Positions 6,231-25,462 of a stretch of DNA of 64,000 nucleotides are shown piece after piece; position 1 is the first letter of the stretch; each line of letters starts with the position of its first letter. The translations under genes were made by a program, and so were the position numbers. Origin of the DNA: a virus. Lineage: Duplodnaviria > Caudoviricetes. The notes under the pieces are model-generated. The model did no database searches, had not been told where the DNA came from, and saw only the letters and a program-made list of their open reading frames with translations. Location of the stretch: IMG/VR virus record IMGVR_UViG_3300017780_003104, positions 128,001 through 192,000 of that record. The stretch is one strand, 5' to 3'.

Positions 6231-6677
6231 ATGATTACGAAAATTAATGATGAATTGAAACAGGCAATGCGCGACAAGAACACGACTAAGTTGAATGTTC
6301 TTCGCGCATTGAAAACAGCTATTATGAATGCTTCTCTACAGAAGGGTAACGTAAATGAACCGTTATCGGAAGTTGAGGTTATTGGTATTATTAGGAAACA
6401 ACTATCACAACGACAAGATTCTATAGCTCAATTTGTTACTGCACAACGTAATGATTTAATTGCTACAGAAGAAGCAGAAGTAGAAGTCCTCAAAGAGTTT
6501 ATACCAGAGGATTTGTCGGATTTACAGTTAGAAACATACATCATCAATACAATTTCTGAGTTAGGTGCTACTAGTAAAAAGGATATGGGGAACGTTATCA
6601 AACGGGTTGCTCATATTGTTAATGGTCGTGCTGATAATAAGAAAATATCTAAAATGGTGGGTGAGAAATTACAATGA
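6231..6677 (+). CDS. GatB/YqeY domain protein
   Basis: KQAMRDK..LNVLRALK, RQDSIAQF..R.DL..E..E..VL.EFIP, KDMGNV. Confidence 0.9.
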   Translation: MITKINDELKQAMRDKNTTKLNVLRALKTAIMNASLQKGNVNEPLSEVEVIGIIRKQLSQRQDSIAQFVTAQRNDLIATEEAEVEVLKEFIPEDLSDLQLETYIINTISELGATSKKDMGNVIKRVAHIVNGRADNKKISKMVGEKLQ

Positions 6678-6967
6678 AATATATCCTCTTTCTTAATAAA
6701 GCATGGGGGGTTGATTTCATGTTAATCCGAAGACTTGAACGTGAAAAAATTGAGTATGATTATGTATCCTTATCTGATGAAGGACATGTGGACACCGAGT
6801 TGTATACTAAGTATGGGATAAGATCTACACCTTGTCTTTTGATTCTTGACAACGATGAGGTGAGTGATAAACTCAGTTCAACAGACGAAATCGTAGAATA
6901 TTTAAAAAATGTACAAAATACTAAAATTCCCGTGGGAACAGAGGACCAAACACTTCTGGGCAAGTGA
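6674..6967 (+). CDS. thioredoxin/glutaredoxin-fold protein (no CxxC)
   Basis: KYGIRSTPCLLIL cis-Pro-type motif; size. Confidence 0.5.
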   Translation: MKYILFLNKAWGVDFMLIRRLEREKIEYDYVSLSDEGHVDTELYTKYGIRSTPCLLILDNDEVSDKLSSTDEIVEYLKNVQNTKIPVGTEDQTLLGK

Positions 6968-7568
6968 TTGGCATAACTTCCATGACCCTAAAACTTGGAC
7001 TTCCCCTATTTGGGAAATGCGGGGATATAGCAATGCTGAAGAGGCATTAGAACAAACTCTCAGGACAACCAATGAAAAGGTTGGTGTGGATGATACCTTG
7101 TGGTATCTTGGTGATGGATTTCTTAATGCCACAGATGATCAATGCATTAATTGGTTGAGTAGAGTGAATTGCCAAAATATTTACTATTTGTTTGGTAATC
7201 ACGAATCCAATATGTATAGGATCTATAAGGAACAGGTCGCGGAACAATATGGGATTGGTGATGCTGAGATTTATCCCTTGAAGTATAAGAATGTCACATT
7301 CTTAGGAAATCATCAAGAAATTCAAATTGGTAAACAGATGATTACCATGAATCATTTCCCTTTAAGAATTTGGCACAAGGATAACCGTAGTGCTTGGATG
7401 CTTAGTGGGCATTCCCACTTACAAGATAAAGGTCGTAGACCAGATGCACCTTTTCAAAAAGGTCTTGATTGTGGTTGTGATTATAAAGTGGTGTGGAGTT
7501 TTTTGGAAATTGAAGATGTAATGTCAACCAAATCGATTCAAATTTTAGACCATAATAGGACTAGTTAA
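6909..7568 (+). CDS. calcineurin-like metallophosphoesterase
   Basis: SDWHNFH, LGDG, GNHE, NHFP, SGHSH motifs. Confidence 0.85.
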   Translation: MYKILKFPWEQRTKHFWASDWHNFHDPKTWTSPIWEMRGYSNAEEALEQTLRTTNEKVGVDDTLWYLGDGFLNATDDQCINWLSRVNCQNIYYLFGNHESNMYRIYKEQVAEQYGIGDAEIYPLKYKNVTFLGNHQEIQIGKQMITMNHFPLRIWHKDNRSAWMLSGHSHLQDKGRRPDAPFQKGLDCGCDYKVVWSFLEIEDVMSTKSIQILDHNRTS

Positions 7569-9090: not shown

Positions 9091-9324
9091 ATGAAAATCA
9101 TCACCACACGCCTTAGAGTCATGCGATACAATTATCGAAATGATTGGAAAGCTGTTCAAATTCTACTCAAATATTATTATATTTTTGGCTTTAAATTTTT
9201 CGAAGTAGAATTAGATAGGGAAGATGTTCCAAGGCATGTGGTTCTTGCCAATGCATGTTTTGGCGATACGAGTGGATGGACTTCAAAATTTATGCCCTTT
9301 GAAAAAGGAGGATGGAAAGACTAA
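9091..9324 (+). CDS. hypothetical protein
   Basis: ORF track; promoter 6 nt upstream. Confidence 0.65.
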   Translation: MKIITTRLRVMRYNYRNDWKAVQILLKYYYIFGFKFFEVELDREDVPRHVVLANACFGDTSGWTSKFMPFEKGGWKD

Positions 9325-9325
9325 A

Positions 9326-9961
9326 ATGCAAACTCGTTATAAATACAACAGAACAAAACATCTTCCATGGTCCCCCGGTGCAACTTCAGATGATAAGATT
9401 CTTAAGGACACTTCTTGCTTTAATGGTAAGACGGTAATCATTACTGAGAAGATGGATGGTGAAAATTCCACTCTTTATAGTGATTATTATCATGCACGTT
9501 CATTAGATGGTAGGGATCATCCTTCACGTTCATGGATTAAACAGTTTCATGCATCTATTAAGAATGACATTCCAGAAGGATGGCGTATATGTGGTGAAAA
9601 CCTTTATGCAAAACATTCCATTGGATATGATAAGCTAAAATCATATTTCTATTGTTTCAGTATTTGGGATGATACTAACTATTGTTTATCTTGGAAAGAC
9701 ACTGTAGAGTTTTGTCAGTTGTTAGGTATTGAACATGTTAAGGTTTTTAAGACTTTGAAGTGGGACGAATTAACAGTAAAGAATTTCTTAATTGATTCTG
9801 AAAAAGAGGAAGGTTATGCTGTTCGTAATGTTGGTGGATTTCTATATGAAGACTTTGGAAGTAACGTAGCGAAATGGGTAAGACCAAATCACGTAACCAC
9901 TTCGACCCATTGGCTACATTCGGAAGTGATACCAAACAAGTTAATTAAAACCGAAGTATAA
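9326..9961 (+). CDS. second RNA ligase family protein
   Basis: KYNRTKHLPWSPG..SDD, TEKMDGEN, ICGENLYAKHSI, EGYAVR, KWVR; start moved to ATG 9326. Confidence 0.8.
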   Translation: MQTRYKYNRTKHLPWSPGATSDDKILKDTSCFNGKTVIITEKMDGENSTLYSDYYHARSLDGRDHPSRSWIKQFHASIKNDIPEGWRICGENLYAKHSIGYDKLKSYFYCFSIWDDTNYCLSWKDTVEFCQLLGIEHVKVFKTLKWDELTVKNFLIDSEKEEGYAVRNVGGFLYEDFGSNVAKWVRPNHVTTSTHWLHSEVIPNKLIKTEV

Positions 9962-15739: not shown

Positions 15740-16657
15740 ATGCGACAACATATCCTCTGGAAAACTACCACTGAATATCCTTACATTCTAAACTTAGATT
15801 TAGGGTTCACACCTTATAAAAAAGGGTTGGATCTCTTATATAAGAAATTTGAATTTAAGGGTGGTGAACCACATTTTCAAATTACCACCCCTTGTGAGTA
15901 TGCTGCACAATCTCATCTTATCATCACACAACGATATAACACGGTCGGTGATCTATTTGATATCATTCTTGCTAACGATGCTGCTCGACGTATGGGCTTT
16001 AGGAACATTAAGTTGATCCTACCATACTTCCCTGCTGCTCGTCAAGATCGAGTATGTAATGAAGGCGAACCTTTGACAATTAAGGTCTTTACTGATATGA
16101 TTAATGGTTGCGGGTTTGATGAAGTAGTTATCCTATGCCCGCATAGTGAAGTGACACCCGCATTGATTAATAATGTTACAGTTCTTGATGAGCATGAATA
16201 TATAGAGAAGGCACTGGAAACTTATAACCATGATCAGATCAATATCGTATGTCCTGATGCTGGTGCTGGTAAGCGTGTGGGTAAAATTGTAGAATTTCTA
16301 TCGAACGGTCCAAAGAAATTCAAGACAGTAAACCTTATTCGCTGTGAAAAGGTTCGTGACGTTAAGGATGGAAGTCTTAAGGGTTTCTTTGTTCAAGCAG
16401 ATGACCTTGGTGGTTGGCCCACTCTCATTTGTGATGATATTGTATCTCTTGGTGGAACCTTCATTGGGCTTGGAGAAGTTCTTAAGACTAAGAATTGTGG
16501 TAAGCTTATGTTGTTTACTGCTCACGCTGATTGTATCGAGGGTCTTGATAAGATGGCGAATTACTTTGACCATTTCTATACAACAAATTCTAAGCGTAAT
16601 TGGGGAGAACTATCCTTGTCTCCCAATAAGGTGACTTGTTTTGATATTAACTTATGA
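15740..16657 (+). CDS. ribose-phosphate pyrophosphokinase-like (Adps candidate)
   Basis: FKGGEPH, LPYFPAARQDR, VCPDAGAGKR, KVRD, ICDDIVSLGGTF. Confidence 0.85.
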   Translation: MRQHILWKTTTEYPYILNLDLGFTPYKKGLDLLYKKFEFKGGEPHFQITTPCEYAAQSHLIITQRYNTVGDLFDIILANDAARRMGFRNIKLILPYFPAARQDRVCNEGEPLTIKVFTDMINGCGFDEVVILCPHSEVTPALINNVTVLDEHEYIEKALETYNHDQINIVCPDAGAGKRVGKIVEFLSNGPKKFKTVNLIRCEKVRDVKDGSLKGFFVQADDLGGWPTLICDDIVSLGGTFIGLGEVLKTKNCGKLMLFTAHADCIEGLDKMANYFDHFYTTNSKRNWGELSLSPNKVTCFDINL

Positions 16658-17492: not shown

Positions 17493-18998
17493 ATGATTAC
17501 AAATCCCTTAACACAAACAGATGCTTATAAATTATCTCATCACGGGTTTATGGACCCATTGACGGAATATATTTACGCTAACCAAACACCAAGAGGTAGT
17601 AGTTACCTACCAGTTCTGAAACAATTTTATGATGATAAGTCCGTGATCTTCGGGTTACAACATTTCATCATTGATTTCCTAATTAATGATTATAACACTG
17701 GATTCTTCAATCTCCCAAAGGAGACTGTGATCAAGAAATTCAAACGTAGGTGTGATGCATATCTAGGAAAGGATAATGTTGATATGACTCGTTTTGAAGA
17801 ATTACATGATCTTGGATATCTTCCAATTCGTATCAAGGCACTACCAGAGGGTAGCAGAGTTAATGTTAAAGTTCCATATTTTACCATTACTAATACTCAC
17901 CCTAAATTTGCTTGGCTTACTAATTATCTTGAAACTATTATTTCCTGTGAAACTTGGAAACCGATTACCAATGCCACTATCGCATTTGAATTCCGTAAGA
18001 TGTTTAATAAGTTTGCTATGGAAACAGTTGGAAATACCGATGGTGTCTGTTTTCAAGGACATGGATTTGAATTTCGTGGTATGAGTGGGAGACACGATTC
18101 TGCTATTAATGGTGCGGCATTCCTTTTAAGCTTTATGGGAACAGATACTATTCCTGCTATTGATTTACTTGAAGATTATTATAATGCTGATGCCGATAAA
18201 GAACTTATTGCTGCTTCTGTTCCAGCATCCGAACATAGCGTAAGTAGTCTTGGAACTGCATTAACAGGGGAGTTGGATTTCTTTAGAGATGCCATCACAA
18301 AACATTATCCAACTGGTATCGTTAGTCTTGTTAGTGACACCTACGACTACTTTAAAGTCATCACTGAGTATGCAACAATTCTTAAAGATGATATCTTAAA
18401 TCGTCAACCCAATGAACTTGGATTAGCTAAAGTTGTATTTAGACCTGATAGTGGAAATCCGGTCAATATTATTTGTGGTGATCCTAATGCTCCTATTGGT
18501 AGTAATGAATACAAAGGCTCCGTTGAGTGTTTATGGGAAATCTTTGGAGGGACTGTATCTGAACAAGGTTATAAGACATTAAACCAAAGGGTGGGATTAA
18601 TCTATGGAGATTCTATCACTCAACAAAGAGCGTATGATATTTTAACTCGTCTCAAAGAAAAAGGATTTGCATCTAATAATATTGTATTCGGGGTTGGGTC
18701 TTATACTTTAAATCTATTAACGCGTGATTGTTTGGGTATGGCTATTAAGGCTACTTGGGCGCAAGTTGATGGTGTGGGTTACGATATTTATAAAGATCCT
18801 ATCACTGATGATGGTCTTAAAAAGTCTGCCAAAGGTCGTCTTAGGGTTGATCTAATTGATGGTGAATATGTTTTGAAAGATCAATGCACGGAAGAAGAAG
18901 AATCTGGAGGAGAACTCAAGACAGTTTTTCTTGATGGTAAATTGATTGTTGATCAAACACTTACTGAGATTCGTGCAAGAGTCGCAACACAATTCTAA
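17493..18998 (+). CDS. nicotinamide phosphoribosyltransferase-like (Nampt/Namat candidate)
   Basis: TDAYKLSH, HGFEFRG, SVPASEHSV, VSDTYD, RPDSG, GLIYGDSIT, FGVGSYT, KKSAKG. Confidence 0.9.
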   Translation: MITNPLTQTDAYKLSHHGFMDPLTEYIYANQTPRGSSYLPVLKQFYDDKSVIFGLQHFIIDFLINDYNTGFFNLPKETVIKKFKRRCDAYLGKDNVDMTRFEELHDLGYLPIRIKALPEGSRVNVKVPYFTITNTHPKFAWLTNYLETIISCETWKPITNATIAFEFRKMFNKFAMETVGNTDGVCFQGHGFEFRGMSGRHDSAINGAAFLLSFMGTDTIPAIDLLEDYYNADADKELIAASVPASEHSVSSLGTALTGELDFFRDAITKHYPTGIVSLVSDTYDYFKVITEYATILKDDILNRQPNELGLAKVVFRPDSGNPVNIICGDPNAPIGSNEYKGSVECLWEIFGGTVSEQGYKTLNQRVGLIYGDSITQQRAYDILTRLKEKGFASNNIVFGVGSYTLNLLTRDCLGMAIKATWAQVDGVGYDIYKDPITDDGLKKSAKGRLRVDLIDGEYVLKDQCTEEEESGGELKTVFLDGKLIVDQTLTEIRARVATQF

Positions 18999-20432: not shown

Positions 20433-21230
20433 ATGAATAACAAAGACGGACTAGGAGACAGAATAAAAAATTACGAAAGTATTTCAGAGCATTACTTTCT
20501 ACCAAAGACTCCGATTATTATTCGCGTTGATGGTAAAAGTTTTCATACGTGGACTAAAGGTTGTCAAAGACCTTTCGATCAAACGCTGATCACTTGTATG
20601 TTTGAGTCTGCTAAAGAAGTAGCTAAACAAATGCAAGGTTGTAAAGCTTTGTATGCTCAATCGGATGAAGTAACATTTGTTCTTACTGATGATACTACTC
20701 TTGATTCACAACAATGGTTTGGCGGTAGACAGAACAAGATTGAAAGTGTTACTGCTGCAATGATGACAGCATACTTTAATAAGAATTGGTTACATTCTGT
20801 TCCTAGACATATGGTTGATTATGATTTTCACGTAGATTACACCCCCGCTATCTTTGATGCCCGTGCTTTTCAATGTCCTAAAGATGATGTTGCTAATGTC
20901 TTTCTATGGAGAGTAAAGGATTGGGAACGTAATAGTCTCAATATGTATTGTGAACAGTTCTTCTCTCATAAGGAACTGCAAGGTCAAGGTCGTGCTGATA
21001 GACATGAAATGCTTCATAAGATTGGACATAATTGGGCTACTGAATGCACCGATCAACAAAAGAATGGTTCGTGGTATTCTCCGGGAAAACCTGATAAGTT
21101 CAACCTCACTAATTACTATGATATCGATGATTATATCTTTCGTGACGGTATTGCTTATGTAATGTCAAAGAAGATGCAATCAGAGGATTTAAGTTGGATG
21201 AGTAAAATGATTGTAAAGAGAATGGGTTAA
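20433..21230 (+). CDS. tRNA(His) guanylyltransferase Thg1-like
   Basis: IRVDGKSFH, YAQSDEVT, WFGGR..KIES, FDARAF, WRVKDWERNS. Confidence 0.9.
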   Translation: MNNKDGLGDRIKNYESISEHYFLPKTPIIIRVDGKSFHTWTKGCQRPFDQTLITCMFESAKEVAKQMQGCKALYAQSDEVTFVLTDDTTLDSQQWFGGRQNKIESVTAAMMTAYFNKNWLHSVPRHMVDYDFHVDYTPAIFDARAFQCPKDDVANVFLWRVKDWERNSLNMYCEQFFSHKELQGQGRADRHEMLHKIGHNWATECTDQQKNGSWYSPGKPDKFNLTNYYDIDDYIFRDGIAYVMSKKMQSEDLSWMSKMIVKRMG

Positions 21231-22673: not shown

Positions 22674-24329
22674 ATGTTTGAGAATAAAAGAAACGCAGAA
22701 GTCGTGACTGTTAAATCAGTTACTCGTAAGGAAGTTAACGCATTCCTAAACAATGCTAAAGCAGAATCATCCAAGACTCGTTCTGGTAACGGGGCATTGA
22801 AATTCAGTTCAAGTGGTGATTCGTTTACCGATCAGTTTACTAAGGCTGGTAAGTATAAGGAACCTCGTAAGTTCTCTCAAATCGCACAAGATTGTGAAAT
22901 GTTGTGGGGTGAAGACCCTCTCAAGTGTGTGAAGTTCGCATTGTTTCTTCGTACTATTCCTCGCGTAGTTAATCTTCCTGATGGAAGTAAGACTGAACTT
23001 CCTCAAAAGGGAACCGAGTTGAAGCATGAAGCAATTATGCGTATGCTTTGGTTGAGTGATAAGTCTCCTCAAGCATTCTGGAATAACATTCTATTGTTTG
23101 TTTCTCTTGGATCTTGGCACGATGTTTTCACTATGCTTCAATATGATCTTAGCTACAACGGTTGGAATAATCGTAAGCTTGATTGGGATAAGTTTGGTGA
23201 GTTGATTCTTGCTGGTCTTAACAATAAGAACACCTGTGATCTTATTAAGAAGTATCTTCCTCAAATCAAGTCTCGTAGTCAAGCTACGACTATTGATGCT
23301 CAATCCAACAATGCTATTGCTAAGTGGATTTGCTCTCTAGTCTTTGGTAACAAGGAAAGCGCATCTTCATACAAGGCTTATCGTAAGATCAAGACTAGTG
23401 GAACCGCGCATGATTGGCAAAAGCTTATCTCCCAAAAGAGAATGAGTGAATTGGATTTCAATAAAATTCATGGTCGTGCTCTATCAATTCTTGTTAAGAG
23501 TAAGTTCTTAAAGAACCAAGGACTTAGCGATAAGTATGCATCTTGGATTACTGCACCTACCACCAAGGAAGTTAAGTATACTGGATTCGTCCATGAACTC
23601 TTCGAAGGTAACTGGAAGAACGATAAGAACAACGAAGCAACTATCAATAAGCAATTCGATACTCTTGTTCAAAAGGCAAGAACTAATGAAGTTACTGATT
23701 TGATTGTCGTTCGTGATACTTCTGGATCGATGTCTTCAATTTGTCCCGGCACTAAGTCTTCATGTCTTGATGTTGGAAAGGCAATCGCTCTATACTTTAG
23801 TGAATTCCTTCAAGGAACCTTTGCGGGTCATTGGATTGAATTCAACTCTGATGCTAAACTTCAAAAATGGGTTGGTCAAACTCCCGTTGATAAGTGGAAG
23901 AATGATAAGTCAAGCTTTTATGGTGGAACTAACTTTCAAAGTGTTGTTAATCTTCTCGCTAAGATGAAGAAAGAGGGAACACCTGAAAGTGATTTCCCTA
24001 GCGGTATCCTTTGCATTTCCGATGCAGAATTCAATCCTACTTCATTAGGTAAAACTAATGTTGAGACTGCGTTGACTACTCTTCGTAATGCTGGATTCTC
24101 CAAGGCTTATGTTGATAACTTTGTGATTATTCTTTGGAACCTTCAAAATAGTTATTATGGTAAAGGGTCTGGTGAAAAGTTTGAGACTGGTAAAGAAGTA
24201 AACAACGTTTACTATCTGGGTGGGTATAGTGCCTCCGCAGTTAGTTTCCTTTCAGCTAAGATCAAGACAACCTATGATCTAATCAACGAGTGTCTTAATC
24301 AGGAAGTTTTGAATATGGTTGAGATTTAA
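22674..24329 (+). CDS. TROVE/Ro60-like (DUF2828-type) helical domain + C-terminal vWA domain
   Basis: vWA MIDAS-like VVRDTSGSM, GGTNFQSV, CISDAEF, ILWNL; N-terminal FSSSGDSFTDQF, LGSWHDVF. Confidence 0.7.
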   Translation: MFENKRNAEVVTVKSVTRKEVNAFLNNAKAESSKTRSGNGALKFSSSGDSFTDQFTKAGKYKEPRKFSQIAQDCEMLWGEDPLKCVKFALFLRTIPRVVNLPDGSKTELPQKGTELKHEAIMRMLWLSDKSPQAFWNNILLFVSLGSWHDVFTMLQYDLSYNGWNNRKLDWDKFGELILAGLNNKNTCDLIKKYLPQIKSRSQATTIDAQSNNAIAKWICSLVFGNKESASSYKAYRKIKTSGTAHDWQKLISQKRMSELDFNKIHGRALSILVKSKFLKNQGLSDKYASWITAPTTKEVKYTGFVHELFEGNWKNDKNNEATINKQFDTLVQKARTNEVTDLIVVRDTSGSMSSICPGTKSSCLDVGKAIALYFSEFLQGTFAGHWIEFNSDAKLQKWVGQTPVDKWKNDKSSFYGGTNFQSVVNLLAKMKKEGTPESDFPSGILCISDAEFNPTSLGKTNVETALTTLRNAGFSKAYVDNFVIILWNLQNSYYGKGSGEKFETGKEVNNVYYLGGYSASAVSFLSAKIKTTYDLINECLNQEVLNMVEI

Positions 24330-24558
24330 ATATCTTAAACTTTCTATCTAAAAAGAGAGTGGAGTCTTTGTAAATAAAGTTTCCGATGCGACCAACTTTA
24401 TCTAGAATCAATAGACAAGCCGACTGATTTGGAAAAATTTACAATGACAATAATAACAGCAAAATTAGAAGAGGTTGACAAATCTAAATTTCATGATTAA
24501 ATAAAGATCCGATGAGGTTTCGGTAGCTTCCTATGGCGAACAAATAAAACTACCAATA

Positions 24559-25461
24559 AGATTGCTTCAGCAAATATATTTTTATTTAAGGAAAAACAAA
24601 AGCAATCTGATAAGAGGACAAACTACAAATACAAAAAATCAAACGTCCTCTGATAAGAATAAGTAACAGCAAAAACAATAAAAAATAAAAGCAAATATGC
24701 TAAACGATGAAAGTCGTCCGGGTATCCTCACCATATTAGAGGTTGTAATATGGAGCTTAGAAGGGAGTCAATCTTAACTTATTCTGATAAAGTCATAAAC
24801 TGCAAATAAAAATACTATTATGCAAAATAGCCTGTCGGTGGGTCCGAGGTAACTAAAACGGTTCGATTCCGTATCTATGACTTGCATAAAATCTCTTCAG
24901 CAAATAACGGAACGTAAAACTCCCATACGTGTGGTTCAAATCCCGCTGCTCACACTTTATTAAAAAGTGGGTATAGCCAAGTGGTAAGGCAGGAGTCCAA
25001 AAACAATGAGATTTAATAGAAATACTCCAGCAAATAACGCAACAAGGAACCGTGTGTCGAACGTTCGATTCGTTCTCTCCCACCATATAAGTAAAATGGG
25101 AGGTAGCTCAGTTGGTAGAGCAACGGTAAGCAAAAAACATAGTATTTCGATAGGATTATATTCAGCAAATATACTACTCAACTGTTAATTGAAAAAAGTA
25201 AAAGTAATCCGATAAGAATTTCAGCAGCATAATATCGTAACTATAACGACTCTAAGGTAGCTTAGGTTTGGGAAACCAATACGGCGATGGTAGATAGGTA
25301 AACTAAGTTCTTTATAGAATATGTAAACCCTACGGGACGAACGATTGAATATTTATATATTCTTTAATGTGTCAGTGAAAGATGAAATTCTGATAAAATT
25401 AGCAACAGCAAACCAAACAAAAATTTGACTTTTAATCAAACAATAAAATGCTAATTTGATA
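24559..25461 (+). ncRNA. array of nine tandem stem-CAGCAAA-cargo-stem-GATA RNA modules (Y RNA-like)
   Basis: Nine different but self-complementary 7-9 bp closing stems; shared CAGCAAA-like bulge; 4-5 nt GATA-like linkers. Confidence 0.85.
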
Positions 25462-25462
25462 C

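Follow-up and report, generated by a model that had tools for sequence, protein, structure and literature searches.

An array of handle-bearing RNA units beside a Ro60-like gene of a freshwater phage displays isolated tRNA anticodon stem-loops, possible baits for tRNA-cutting nucleases

The window analysed here, a 64,000-nt stretch corresponding to bases 128001–192000 of the 211,724-bp record of a freshwater phage (Caudoviricetes; IMG/VR record IMGVR_UViG_3300017780_003104; ~212 kb with terminal repeats), contains a non-coding interval at 24330–25462, bounded by a 551-aa open reading frame (ORF; 22674–24329, plus strand) and a 92-aa ORF. The 551-aa product is predicted to be a Ro60-like protein (TROVE plus vWA fold; DUF7788/DUF2828 family) and is the presumed partner of the RNA that lies behind it: beginning 230 nt past the end of its gene, nine contiguous units of one common grammar form an array on the plus strand (24559–25457). 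Two of them, units 7 and 9, display faithful copies of the anticodon stem-loops of tRNA-Asn(GUU) and tRNA-Lys(UUU) and are the main subject of this report.

Each unit is enclosed by a closing stem of 6–10 bp that starts A-G/A and ends C/U-U. On the 5′ side, the stem is followed after 0–3 bases by the motif CAGCAA, mostly continued as AUA, in single-stranded form; a variable insert, the return strand and a four-base linker, GAUA, complete the order. A scan of the whole 211.7-kb genome identified this array as the sole cluster with such a CAGCAA handle.

In unit 7 (25153–25210), the insert contains TCAA-CTGTTAA-TTGA at 25178–25192, a 4-bp stem with the 7-nt loop C-U-GUU-A-A, and in unit 9 (25396–25457) it contains TTTGA-CTTTTAA-TCAAA at 25424–25440, a 5-bp stem with the 7-nt loop C-U-UUU-A-A. 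Both readings, taken directly from the letters, bear out an earlier note made from this DNA, which had proposed Asn-GUU and Lys-UUU anticodon loops at these positions. A third loop of that note, a Leu-UAA-like one in unit 1 (24559–24608), did not survive: it needs an A-A closing mismatch, the counterparts of unit 1 at three homologous loci (L008, L009 and L010) are not anticodon-like, and the unit belongs to a separate recurrent class of inserts with GG in the loop. Both loops of units 7 and 9 are of the C32-U33-NNN-A37-A38 type, and each loop together with its two adjoining stem pairs is identical to the anticodon arm of the phage's own tRNA-Lys(UUU) or tRNA-Asn(GUU). The features of an anticodon stem-loop—a stem of ~5 bp, a 7-nt loop, pyrimidine-32, U33 and purine-37—are all present in the two units and their family. 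What they lack is a cloverleaf with an acceptor stem; they consist of the anticodon arm alone. As ARAGORN called no tRNA in 24330–25462, as compared to seven tRNA genes elsewhere in the window, the hairpins are isolated.

Arrays of this kind recur in other phages. Searching with the protein family yielded 80 loci on viral contigs and 80 on metagenome contigs (designated by L numbers), in which units were called by a home-made finder that demands the motif, the closing stem, a GA(U/A)A-type tail and at least three units within 1.2 kb, and that misses divergent units. Arrays were found beside the homologous gene at 50 of the 80 viral and 51 of the 80 metagenome loci. The viral set provides 255 unique units; the metagenome set, from which identical units had been removed and some of whose loci may be close kin of viral-set loci, adds 186. 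A strand control at 40 loci returned 185 units on the strand of the gene vs. 5 on the opposite strand. In the flanks of 80 loci, no conserved protein neighbour of the arrays was detected besides the Ro60-like gene; hence, the constant pair is this gene and the RNA array. Strict anticodon units occur in 24 of the 50 viral-set arrays and tRNA-body units in 39 of them.

A DNA similarity search of cultured phages returned no match. At the protein level, one cultured phage was retrieved, the cyanophage Leptolyngbya phage Lbo-JY46, whose gene shares 43% identity and is followed, in an unannotated gap, by a five-unit array (L089 5160–5520; PP438436.1 ~6920–7280). Two of its units carry C-U-UUU-A-A (Lys-UUU) hairpins and one is a T-arm unit.

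The likeness to anticodon arms is beyond chance. The earlier note had named a lack of enrichment of canonical U33-NNN-A37 loops in homologous arrays as grounds for giving up its reading; the opposite was found, an enrichment of ~60-fold in two locus sets. Among 124 unique short inserts of the viral set, 33 contain a CU-NNN-AA hairpin of at least 4 bp, as compared to 0.57 ± 0.75 (maximum 5) in 500 dinucleotide shuffles, and a looser YU-NNN-R-N pattern was present 59 times (6.2 expected). The metagenome set replicated this result, with such a CU-NNN-AA hairpin in 20 of 82 new inserts vs. 0.29 ± 0.51. Even without any pre-selection of the loop, the best hairpin has a 7-nt loop in 50 of the 124 inserts (9.2 expected); of these 50 loops, 27 begin with C and 43 have U in second place, 43 have a purine in sixth place and 31 end in A.

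Covariation points the same way. Across 33 aligned units with such hairpins, pairing reaches 93% in the anticodon-like helix, both partners having changed at five of five pairs, and 83% in the closing stem, with double changes at nine of nine; as these units were picked for having the stem, pairedness is partly due to selection, while the double changes and the insert shuffle tests are not. None of 500 shuffles reached the observed scores, and slid partners paired in 33–40% of cases vs. 87%.

The anticodons on display are far from evenly distributed. Strict loops of the viral set comprise UUU (12), UGU (5), CUU (4), GCA (3), CGU and GUA (2 each) and one each of CAU, UCU, GAU, GUU and UGA, alongside close variants of the Lys loop; those of the replicate set comprise CUU and UUU (4 each), GUU (3), UGU and UCU (2 each) and one each of GGA, GCU, GCA, CAA and UGA. 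In this comparison across homologous arrays, which the earlier note had suggested, Lys (UUU, CUU) dominates, followed by Thr and Asn, and A-rich triplets are nearly absent, though base composition would favour them. Asn and Tyr tRNAs are among the substrates of colicin E5, and tRNA-Lys(UUU) is a substrate of both PrrC and RloC. It is also cut by AriB, the nuclease of PARIS, which has tRNA-Lys(UUU) as well as tRNA-Thr(UGU) as prime targets and tRNA-Asn(GUU) as a secondary one, barely cuts tRNA-Thr(CGU), and whose targets have U36-A-A-U next to the cut in common (PMC12409363). The prevailing displayed anticodons coincide with the substrates reported for this nuclease. The Lys unit of the window reads U36-A-A-U-C-A41, letter for letter the Escherichia coli AriB cleavage site.

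The constant neighbour of the arrays was assigned mainly by its fold. Sequence comparison of the 551-aa ORF gave no matches other than Pfam DUF7788 (5e-10) and phrog_850, 'RNA-binding protein' (3e-30); its homologues carry DUF2828 plus DUF7788, and a sequence search of the PDB with it gave chance matches only. AlphaFold DB cluster and Atlas entries supplied the name of the family, with no organisms attached. An AlphaFold2 model built on 21 homologues (mean predicted local distance difference test score 81) was used for fold searches, in which the best 12 PDB matches were all Ro60/TROVE proteins, with Thermus phage phiLo and frog (with RNA) among their sources. In Swiss-Prot, the best five matches were RO60 of worm, frog, Deinococcus, mouse and man, with telomerase p80 also listed. 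Since only Ro60 was matched over the full length, the protein is, as modelled, a ring-shaped, divergent Ro60-like protein that includes a vWA domain, whose metal-ion-dependent adhesion site (MIDAS)-type residues D348-x-S350-x-S352 are invariant in the 21 homologues. Next to Ro60 genes of bacteria and some phages lie Y RNAs, including one or more that imitate a tRNA body (PMC4201824). The array occupies the corresponding place beside a Ro60 (TROVE) orthologue as judged by fold, its neighbour being DUF7788 by sequence.

Other units in the window contain further tRNA-like or structured inserts. Units 5 (24886–25017) and 6 (25019–25148) each carry, on their handle, a circularly permuted tRNA body made of T arm, closed acceptor stem and D arm and devoid of the anticodon arm; in unit 6, ACCA follows the closed acceptor stem. 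These are the parts of the tRNA-like domain of YrlA-type Y RNAs, which units 7 and 9 do not possess. In line with this, Rfam matched YrlA within unit 6 (25051–25125; 33 bits, E 5.6e-5), short of its 69-bit gathering score, and units 7 and 9 not at all; the best matches elsewhere, 39–42 bits in L011 and L021, are likewise sub-threshold. Unit 4 (24790–24883; handle CTGCAAATA) has an insert with a T-arm-like hairpin. Unit 3 (24656–24785) has a structured insert of 101 nt that is kept in L008; compared with E. coli 16S and 23S rRNA, it gave nothing significant, and the idea that it resembles the GTPase centre (23S helix 43) was dropped after it proved non-significant against E. coli 23S. Unit 2 (24613–24651) combines a handle with variant motif CTACAAATA and an unstructured insert of 13 nt.

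Unit 8 (25215–25391; handle variant CAGCAGCAT) carries a structured insert of 154 nt, the start of which (25235–25260) shares 23 of 26 bases with positions 1909–1934 of E. coli 23S rRNA, covering helix 69 and the beginning of helix 70. This match has a local score of 37 vs. 20.3 ± 2.2 for shuffles (maximum 30); the homologous insert in L008 scores 27 at a shuffle maximum of 29 and is not significant alone. The 23S-like stretch is followed by a covarying hairpin with a GAAA tetraloop, UUGG-GAAA-CCAA here and UCGG-GAAA-CCGA in L002.

Unit 1, a handle with a short A/U hairpin insert and no anticodon mimic, represents the recurrent GG-loop class of inserts (38 units), which have an A/U stem of 5–6 bp and a loop UU-NNG-G-U or A-UUGG-UA; further examples are L028 6168–6225, L047 5632–5690 and L057 5315–5375. 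Its model could be an anticodon loop of the G37 type (Leu or Pro) or else a D loop bearing G18-G19. The same unit gave the better of two matches in the window to the Rfam family Dicty_Class_I_RNA (30.2 bits, E 0.0026; the other 16.4 bits), both sub-threshold at a gathering score of 41.5 and located in units 1 and 7 (25153–25211). Matches of 32–34 bits occur at L009 5444–5506, L047 5633–5690 and L050 5490–5544.

Ahead of the array lies a putative promoter, TTGACA-N17-TAAATA (24475–24503, plus strand), recognised by sequence match and also preceding the array in L002. A sigma-70 promoter scan returned nothing above chance, and the consensus scan did not list this element since its last base is A. 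Between it and unit 1, a leader (24522–24558, plus strand) comprises a mini-hairpin GGTAG...CTACC, a degenerate CGAACAAATA motif and an AATA linker, and has a counterpart in L002. Two early leads concerning the maturation of the array were abandoned. Self-cleaving ribozyme cores had been suspected from the resemblance of the CUGAUAAG linker to CUGAUGA; Rfam at E up to 10 listed no ribozyme, and the linker is merely GAUA between stems. The other, permuted tRNA genes that mature through circles, was not retained. Contigs from a related freshwater population (run X4) join across 24646–24802 and 25122–25236, skipping 155 and 113 bases, and other CAGCAA-type units were observed on loose contig ends in X3 and X4; strains thus seem to acquire, lose or exchange units in cassette form.

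Within 15 kb upstream of the array, genes at 9224–9961, 15740–16657, 17493–18998 and 20433–21230 encode an RNA ligase (PF09414), a PRPP-synthetase-like protein, a nicotinamide/nicotinate phosphoribosyltransferase for the salvage of NAD, and a Thg1-like tRNA 5′-end polymerase of the kind that repairs tRNA 5′ ends; the region looks like a neighbourhood of RNA repair and counter-defence. The phage genome as a whole has 22 tRNA genes, including those for Lys(UUU), Asn(GUU) and Thr(UGU). One tRNA of the phage has the anticodon CUA (amber suppressor type; labelled Pyl by ARAGORN) and lies outside the window at 196159–196232, in a cluster of 15 tRNAs, and the phage tRNA-Leu(UAG) and tRNA-Pro(UGG) have A instead of the usual G at position 37. 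At other loci, real tRNA genes are often situated directly downstream of the arrays (L011, L021, L082), and in L050 the array is followed by a transfer-messenger RNA gene (6422–6781, 72 bits).

From their anatomy of handle plus displayed module, the Ro60-like neighbour gene and the copying of tRNA parts, we read units 7 and 9 as putative Y-RNA-like bait RNAs of the Ro60-like protein, with decoy function as the leading interpretation, at a probability of roughly 40%. The proposal of the earlier note, that the units are decoy substrates titrating anticodon nucleases, is thereby partly supported; the note did not take in the Ro60-fold gene upstream or the YrlA-like tRNA bodies nearby. The RNA ligase, Thg1-like and NAD-salvage genes upstream are in keeping with a bait. 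The array would be processed into single units, whose handle is presumably held by the Ro60-like protein encoded just upstream, and this protein would keep the small RNA stable and abundant. Each unit would show its variable module, in units 7 and 9 the faithful Asn GUU and Lys UUU anticodon stem-loops. The exposed hairpin would then occupy proteins that read the anticodon arm, above all—as the presumed target of the bait—host tRNA-cutting nucleases similar to AriB of PARIS, PrrC or RloC, and real tRNAs would be spared during infection. In a wider and somewhat more tentative version, the Ro60-like protein might be the carrier of a changeable library of RNA baits that disarms RNA-targeting defence nucleases, comprising anticodon arms of those tRNAs that bacterial immunity attacks most often (Lys, Thr and Asn, besides others), tRNA bodies devoid of the anticodon arm, and the 23S helix-69 look-alike.

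Several points weigh against the bait reading. Binding or cutting of the units by nucleases and binding of the handle by the Ro60-like protein are both inferred. The phage also encodes full tRNA-Lys, -Thr and -Asn genes, another known route to survive tRNA cleavage. AriB additionally reads the D loop, as a tRNA with the cleavage site but with T5-type distal positions stays uncut (PMC12409363); an isolated hairpin may thus bind AriB poorly. Positions 39–41 of the Lys mimics vary among phages, so that not all carry the AriB site, and other anticodons are displayed as well (Cys, Tyr, Phe, Met, Ile, Arg, Ser), several of them without a known nuclease. Moreover, the spectrum was set beside published AriB targets in place of the defences of the phage's own host. 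Lastly, transcription of the array is weakly indicated: two 100%-identical metatranscriptome contigs from one sample cover 24184–24406 and 24807–25069 at a depth of 2.5–4.7, for which DNA carry-over is possible.

Rather than luring an enzyme away, the anticodon-like module might recruit one. An RNA ligase, a healing or modification enzyme or an exonuclease that binds anticodon arms could be brought to a Ro60-like ring holding damaged tRNA ends, yielding a particle that repairs or clears cleaved tRNAs after the model of the Deinococcus Ro60/Y RNA/PNPase complex. The Ro60 fold of the protein and the YrlA-like neighbouring units suit such an adaptor, as does the tethering of Ro60 to an effector by Y RNA in known systems, described in PMC4201824; jumbo-phage TROVE proteins, too, have been filed under RNA repair (PMC7824862), and the phage has genes for an RNA ligase and a Thg1-like enzyme in the vicinity. 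Across the 80 loci, however, no repair gene is conserved beside the arrays, and the skew towards Lys, Thr and Asn does not discriminate, as it fits the targets of nucleases and the repair of these targets equally. We regard an adaptor role as possible and somewhat less likely than the bait. An appreciably less probable proposal is that the hairpins act as sponges or regulators which bind aminoacyl-tRNA synthetases or the enzymes modifying A37 to t6A or i6A (N6-threonylcarbamoyl- or N6-isopentenyladenosine), tuning host translation. U36-A37 characterises the t6A-type loop of tRNAs decoding ANN codons and A36-A37 the i6A type, and the strict loops show the former in 29 and the latter in 11 of 45 cases. 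Mimics of Ala tRNAs were not seen and those of Ser or Leu tRNAs are rare; the synthetases of these tRNAs ignore the anticodon. Yet the phage would gain no evident benefit from such a sponge, which does not predict the heavy Lys skew either, and no phage strategy of this kind was found in the literature searched.

Two further explanations concern how the hairpins might have arisen or might be used as tRNA parts. It is very improbable that the units are split tRNA genes whose anticodon hairpins are joined to the neighbouring anticodon-less bodies to give working tRNAs. The bodies of units 5 and 6 do miss exactly the anticodon arm that other units offer alone, and the window encodes an RNA ligase; each unit, however, is self-closed by its own covarying stem, bodies and hairpins share no complementarity, and the acceptor stem of the circularly permuted bodies is closed. 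Nor do the numbers match, with 39 arrays containing bodies vs. 24 containing strict hairpins and L013, L027, L047, L082 and L083 having hairpins without a body, and ordinary tRNA-Lys and tRNA-Asn genes are present anyway. As for chance hairpins or decaying, functionless tRNA fragments, a high A+T content and the frequent position of arrays beside tRNA gene clusters, which could seed fragments, speak for them. An excess of ~60-fold over shuffles in two locus sets, covarying stems around constant loops, and recurrence over protein identities of 42% to 91% as well as in a cultured cyanophage leave this explanation with a negligible share.

The closest known relatives of the proposed bait RNAs are the YrlA-type Y RNAs associated with Ro60/Rsr (RF02553; Chen et al. 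2014, PMC4201824), with which the phage units have in common that they are small RNAs beside the gene for a Ro60-fold protein, that a stem joins their 5′ and 3′ ends and that a variable module mimics tRNA. The resemblance extends to units 5 and 6, with T arm, closed acceptor, D arm and a stem at the anticodon position. The systems differ in that the phage protein belongs to a DUF2828/DUF7788 branch not recognised by Pfam TROVE, the phage handle is a short stem plus single-stranded CAGCAA as opposed to the conserved bulged helix of Y RNA, the phage units come in arrays of up to ~11, and Rfam scores stay below gathering. Units 7 and 9, moreover, mimic the anticodon arm alone, the part that YrlA lacks.

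The second likeness is to the Class I RNAs of dictyostelid social amoebae (RF01414), which are ~60 nt long, have a short covarying stem (6 bp) that joins the ends, with a conserved CAGCAA-containing motif abutting its 5′ strand and a variable remainder (Kjellin et al. 2021, PMC7919456). The phage units conform to this structural description. Class I RNAs start with AAG and end with CUGU, while the phage units read ..A-AG[stem]...[stem]CU-GAUA; they are eukaryotic, cytoplasmic RNAs transcribed singly from DUSE promoters, with the RRM protein Rnp1A as partner, and have been reported as unique to Dictyostelia (PMC7919456), with no known link to a Ro60-like protein. The likeness is one of description and sub-threshold scores (gathering score 41.5), by which homology is not established. 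If the Ro60-like protein does carry a bait library, Class I RNAs may, as a corollary, be the same kind of handle-plus-cargo RNA.

With regard to function, the tRNA-Lys, -Thr and -Asn of phage T5 are a phage answer to PARIS that involves the same arms (Lys UUU, Thr UGU, Asn GUU; PMC11464382, PMC12409363). T5 supplies complete, functional, cleavage-resistant replacements, whereas the phage units are bare, unchargeable hairpins, and the Lys unit of the window keeps a site of the sensitive type. RNA anti-CRISPRs are phage-encoded mimics of CRISPR repeats, small RNAs that imitate the RNA ligand of a host immune protein; they concern another immune system and another RNA, and have no co-encoded protein partner. 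The CAGCAA-handle family is not represented in Rfam, and no earlier description came up in our literature searches on DUF2828, on RNA arrays of phage Ro60 or on anticodon decoys. Mimicry of tRNA by YrlA-type RNAs beside Ro60 is already known. New here is the census, which reveals isolated anticodon arms as a major, conserved class of inserts with a spectrum matching known nuclease targets.

Cleavage of tRNA is among the commonest outputs of bacterial immunity, being performed by PrrC, RloC, PARIS, retron effectors, Schlafen-like proteins and CRISPR-linked nucleases, and the known answers of phages are tRNA repair and resistant tRNA genes. The system described here is open to experiment, as the cultured Lbo-JY46 carries two Lys units and assays for E. 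coli PARIS and PrrC exist. If the bait reading is true, protein-carried look-alikes of anticodon arms would be a third phage answer to tRNA cleavage. The purpose of tRNA mimicry in Y RNAs, a question that has stood since 2014, would likewise become concrete, and the displayed anticodons would be readable as a record of the tRNAs that host defences attack.

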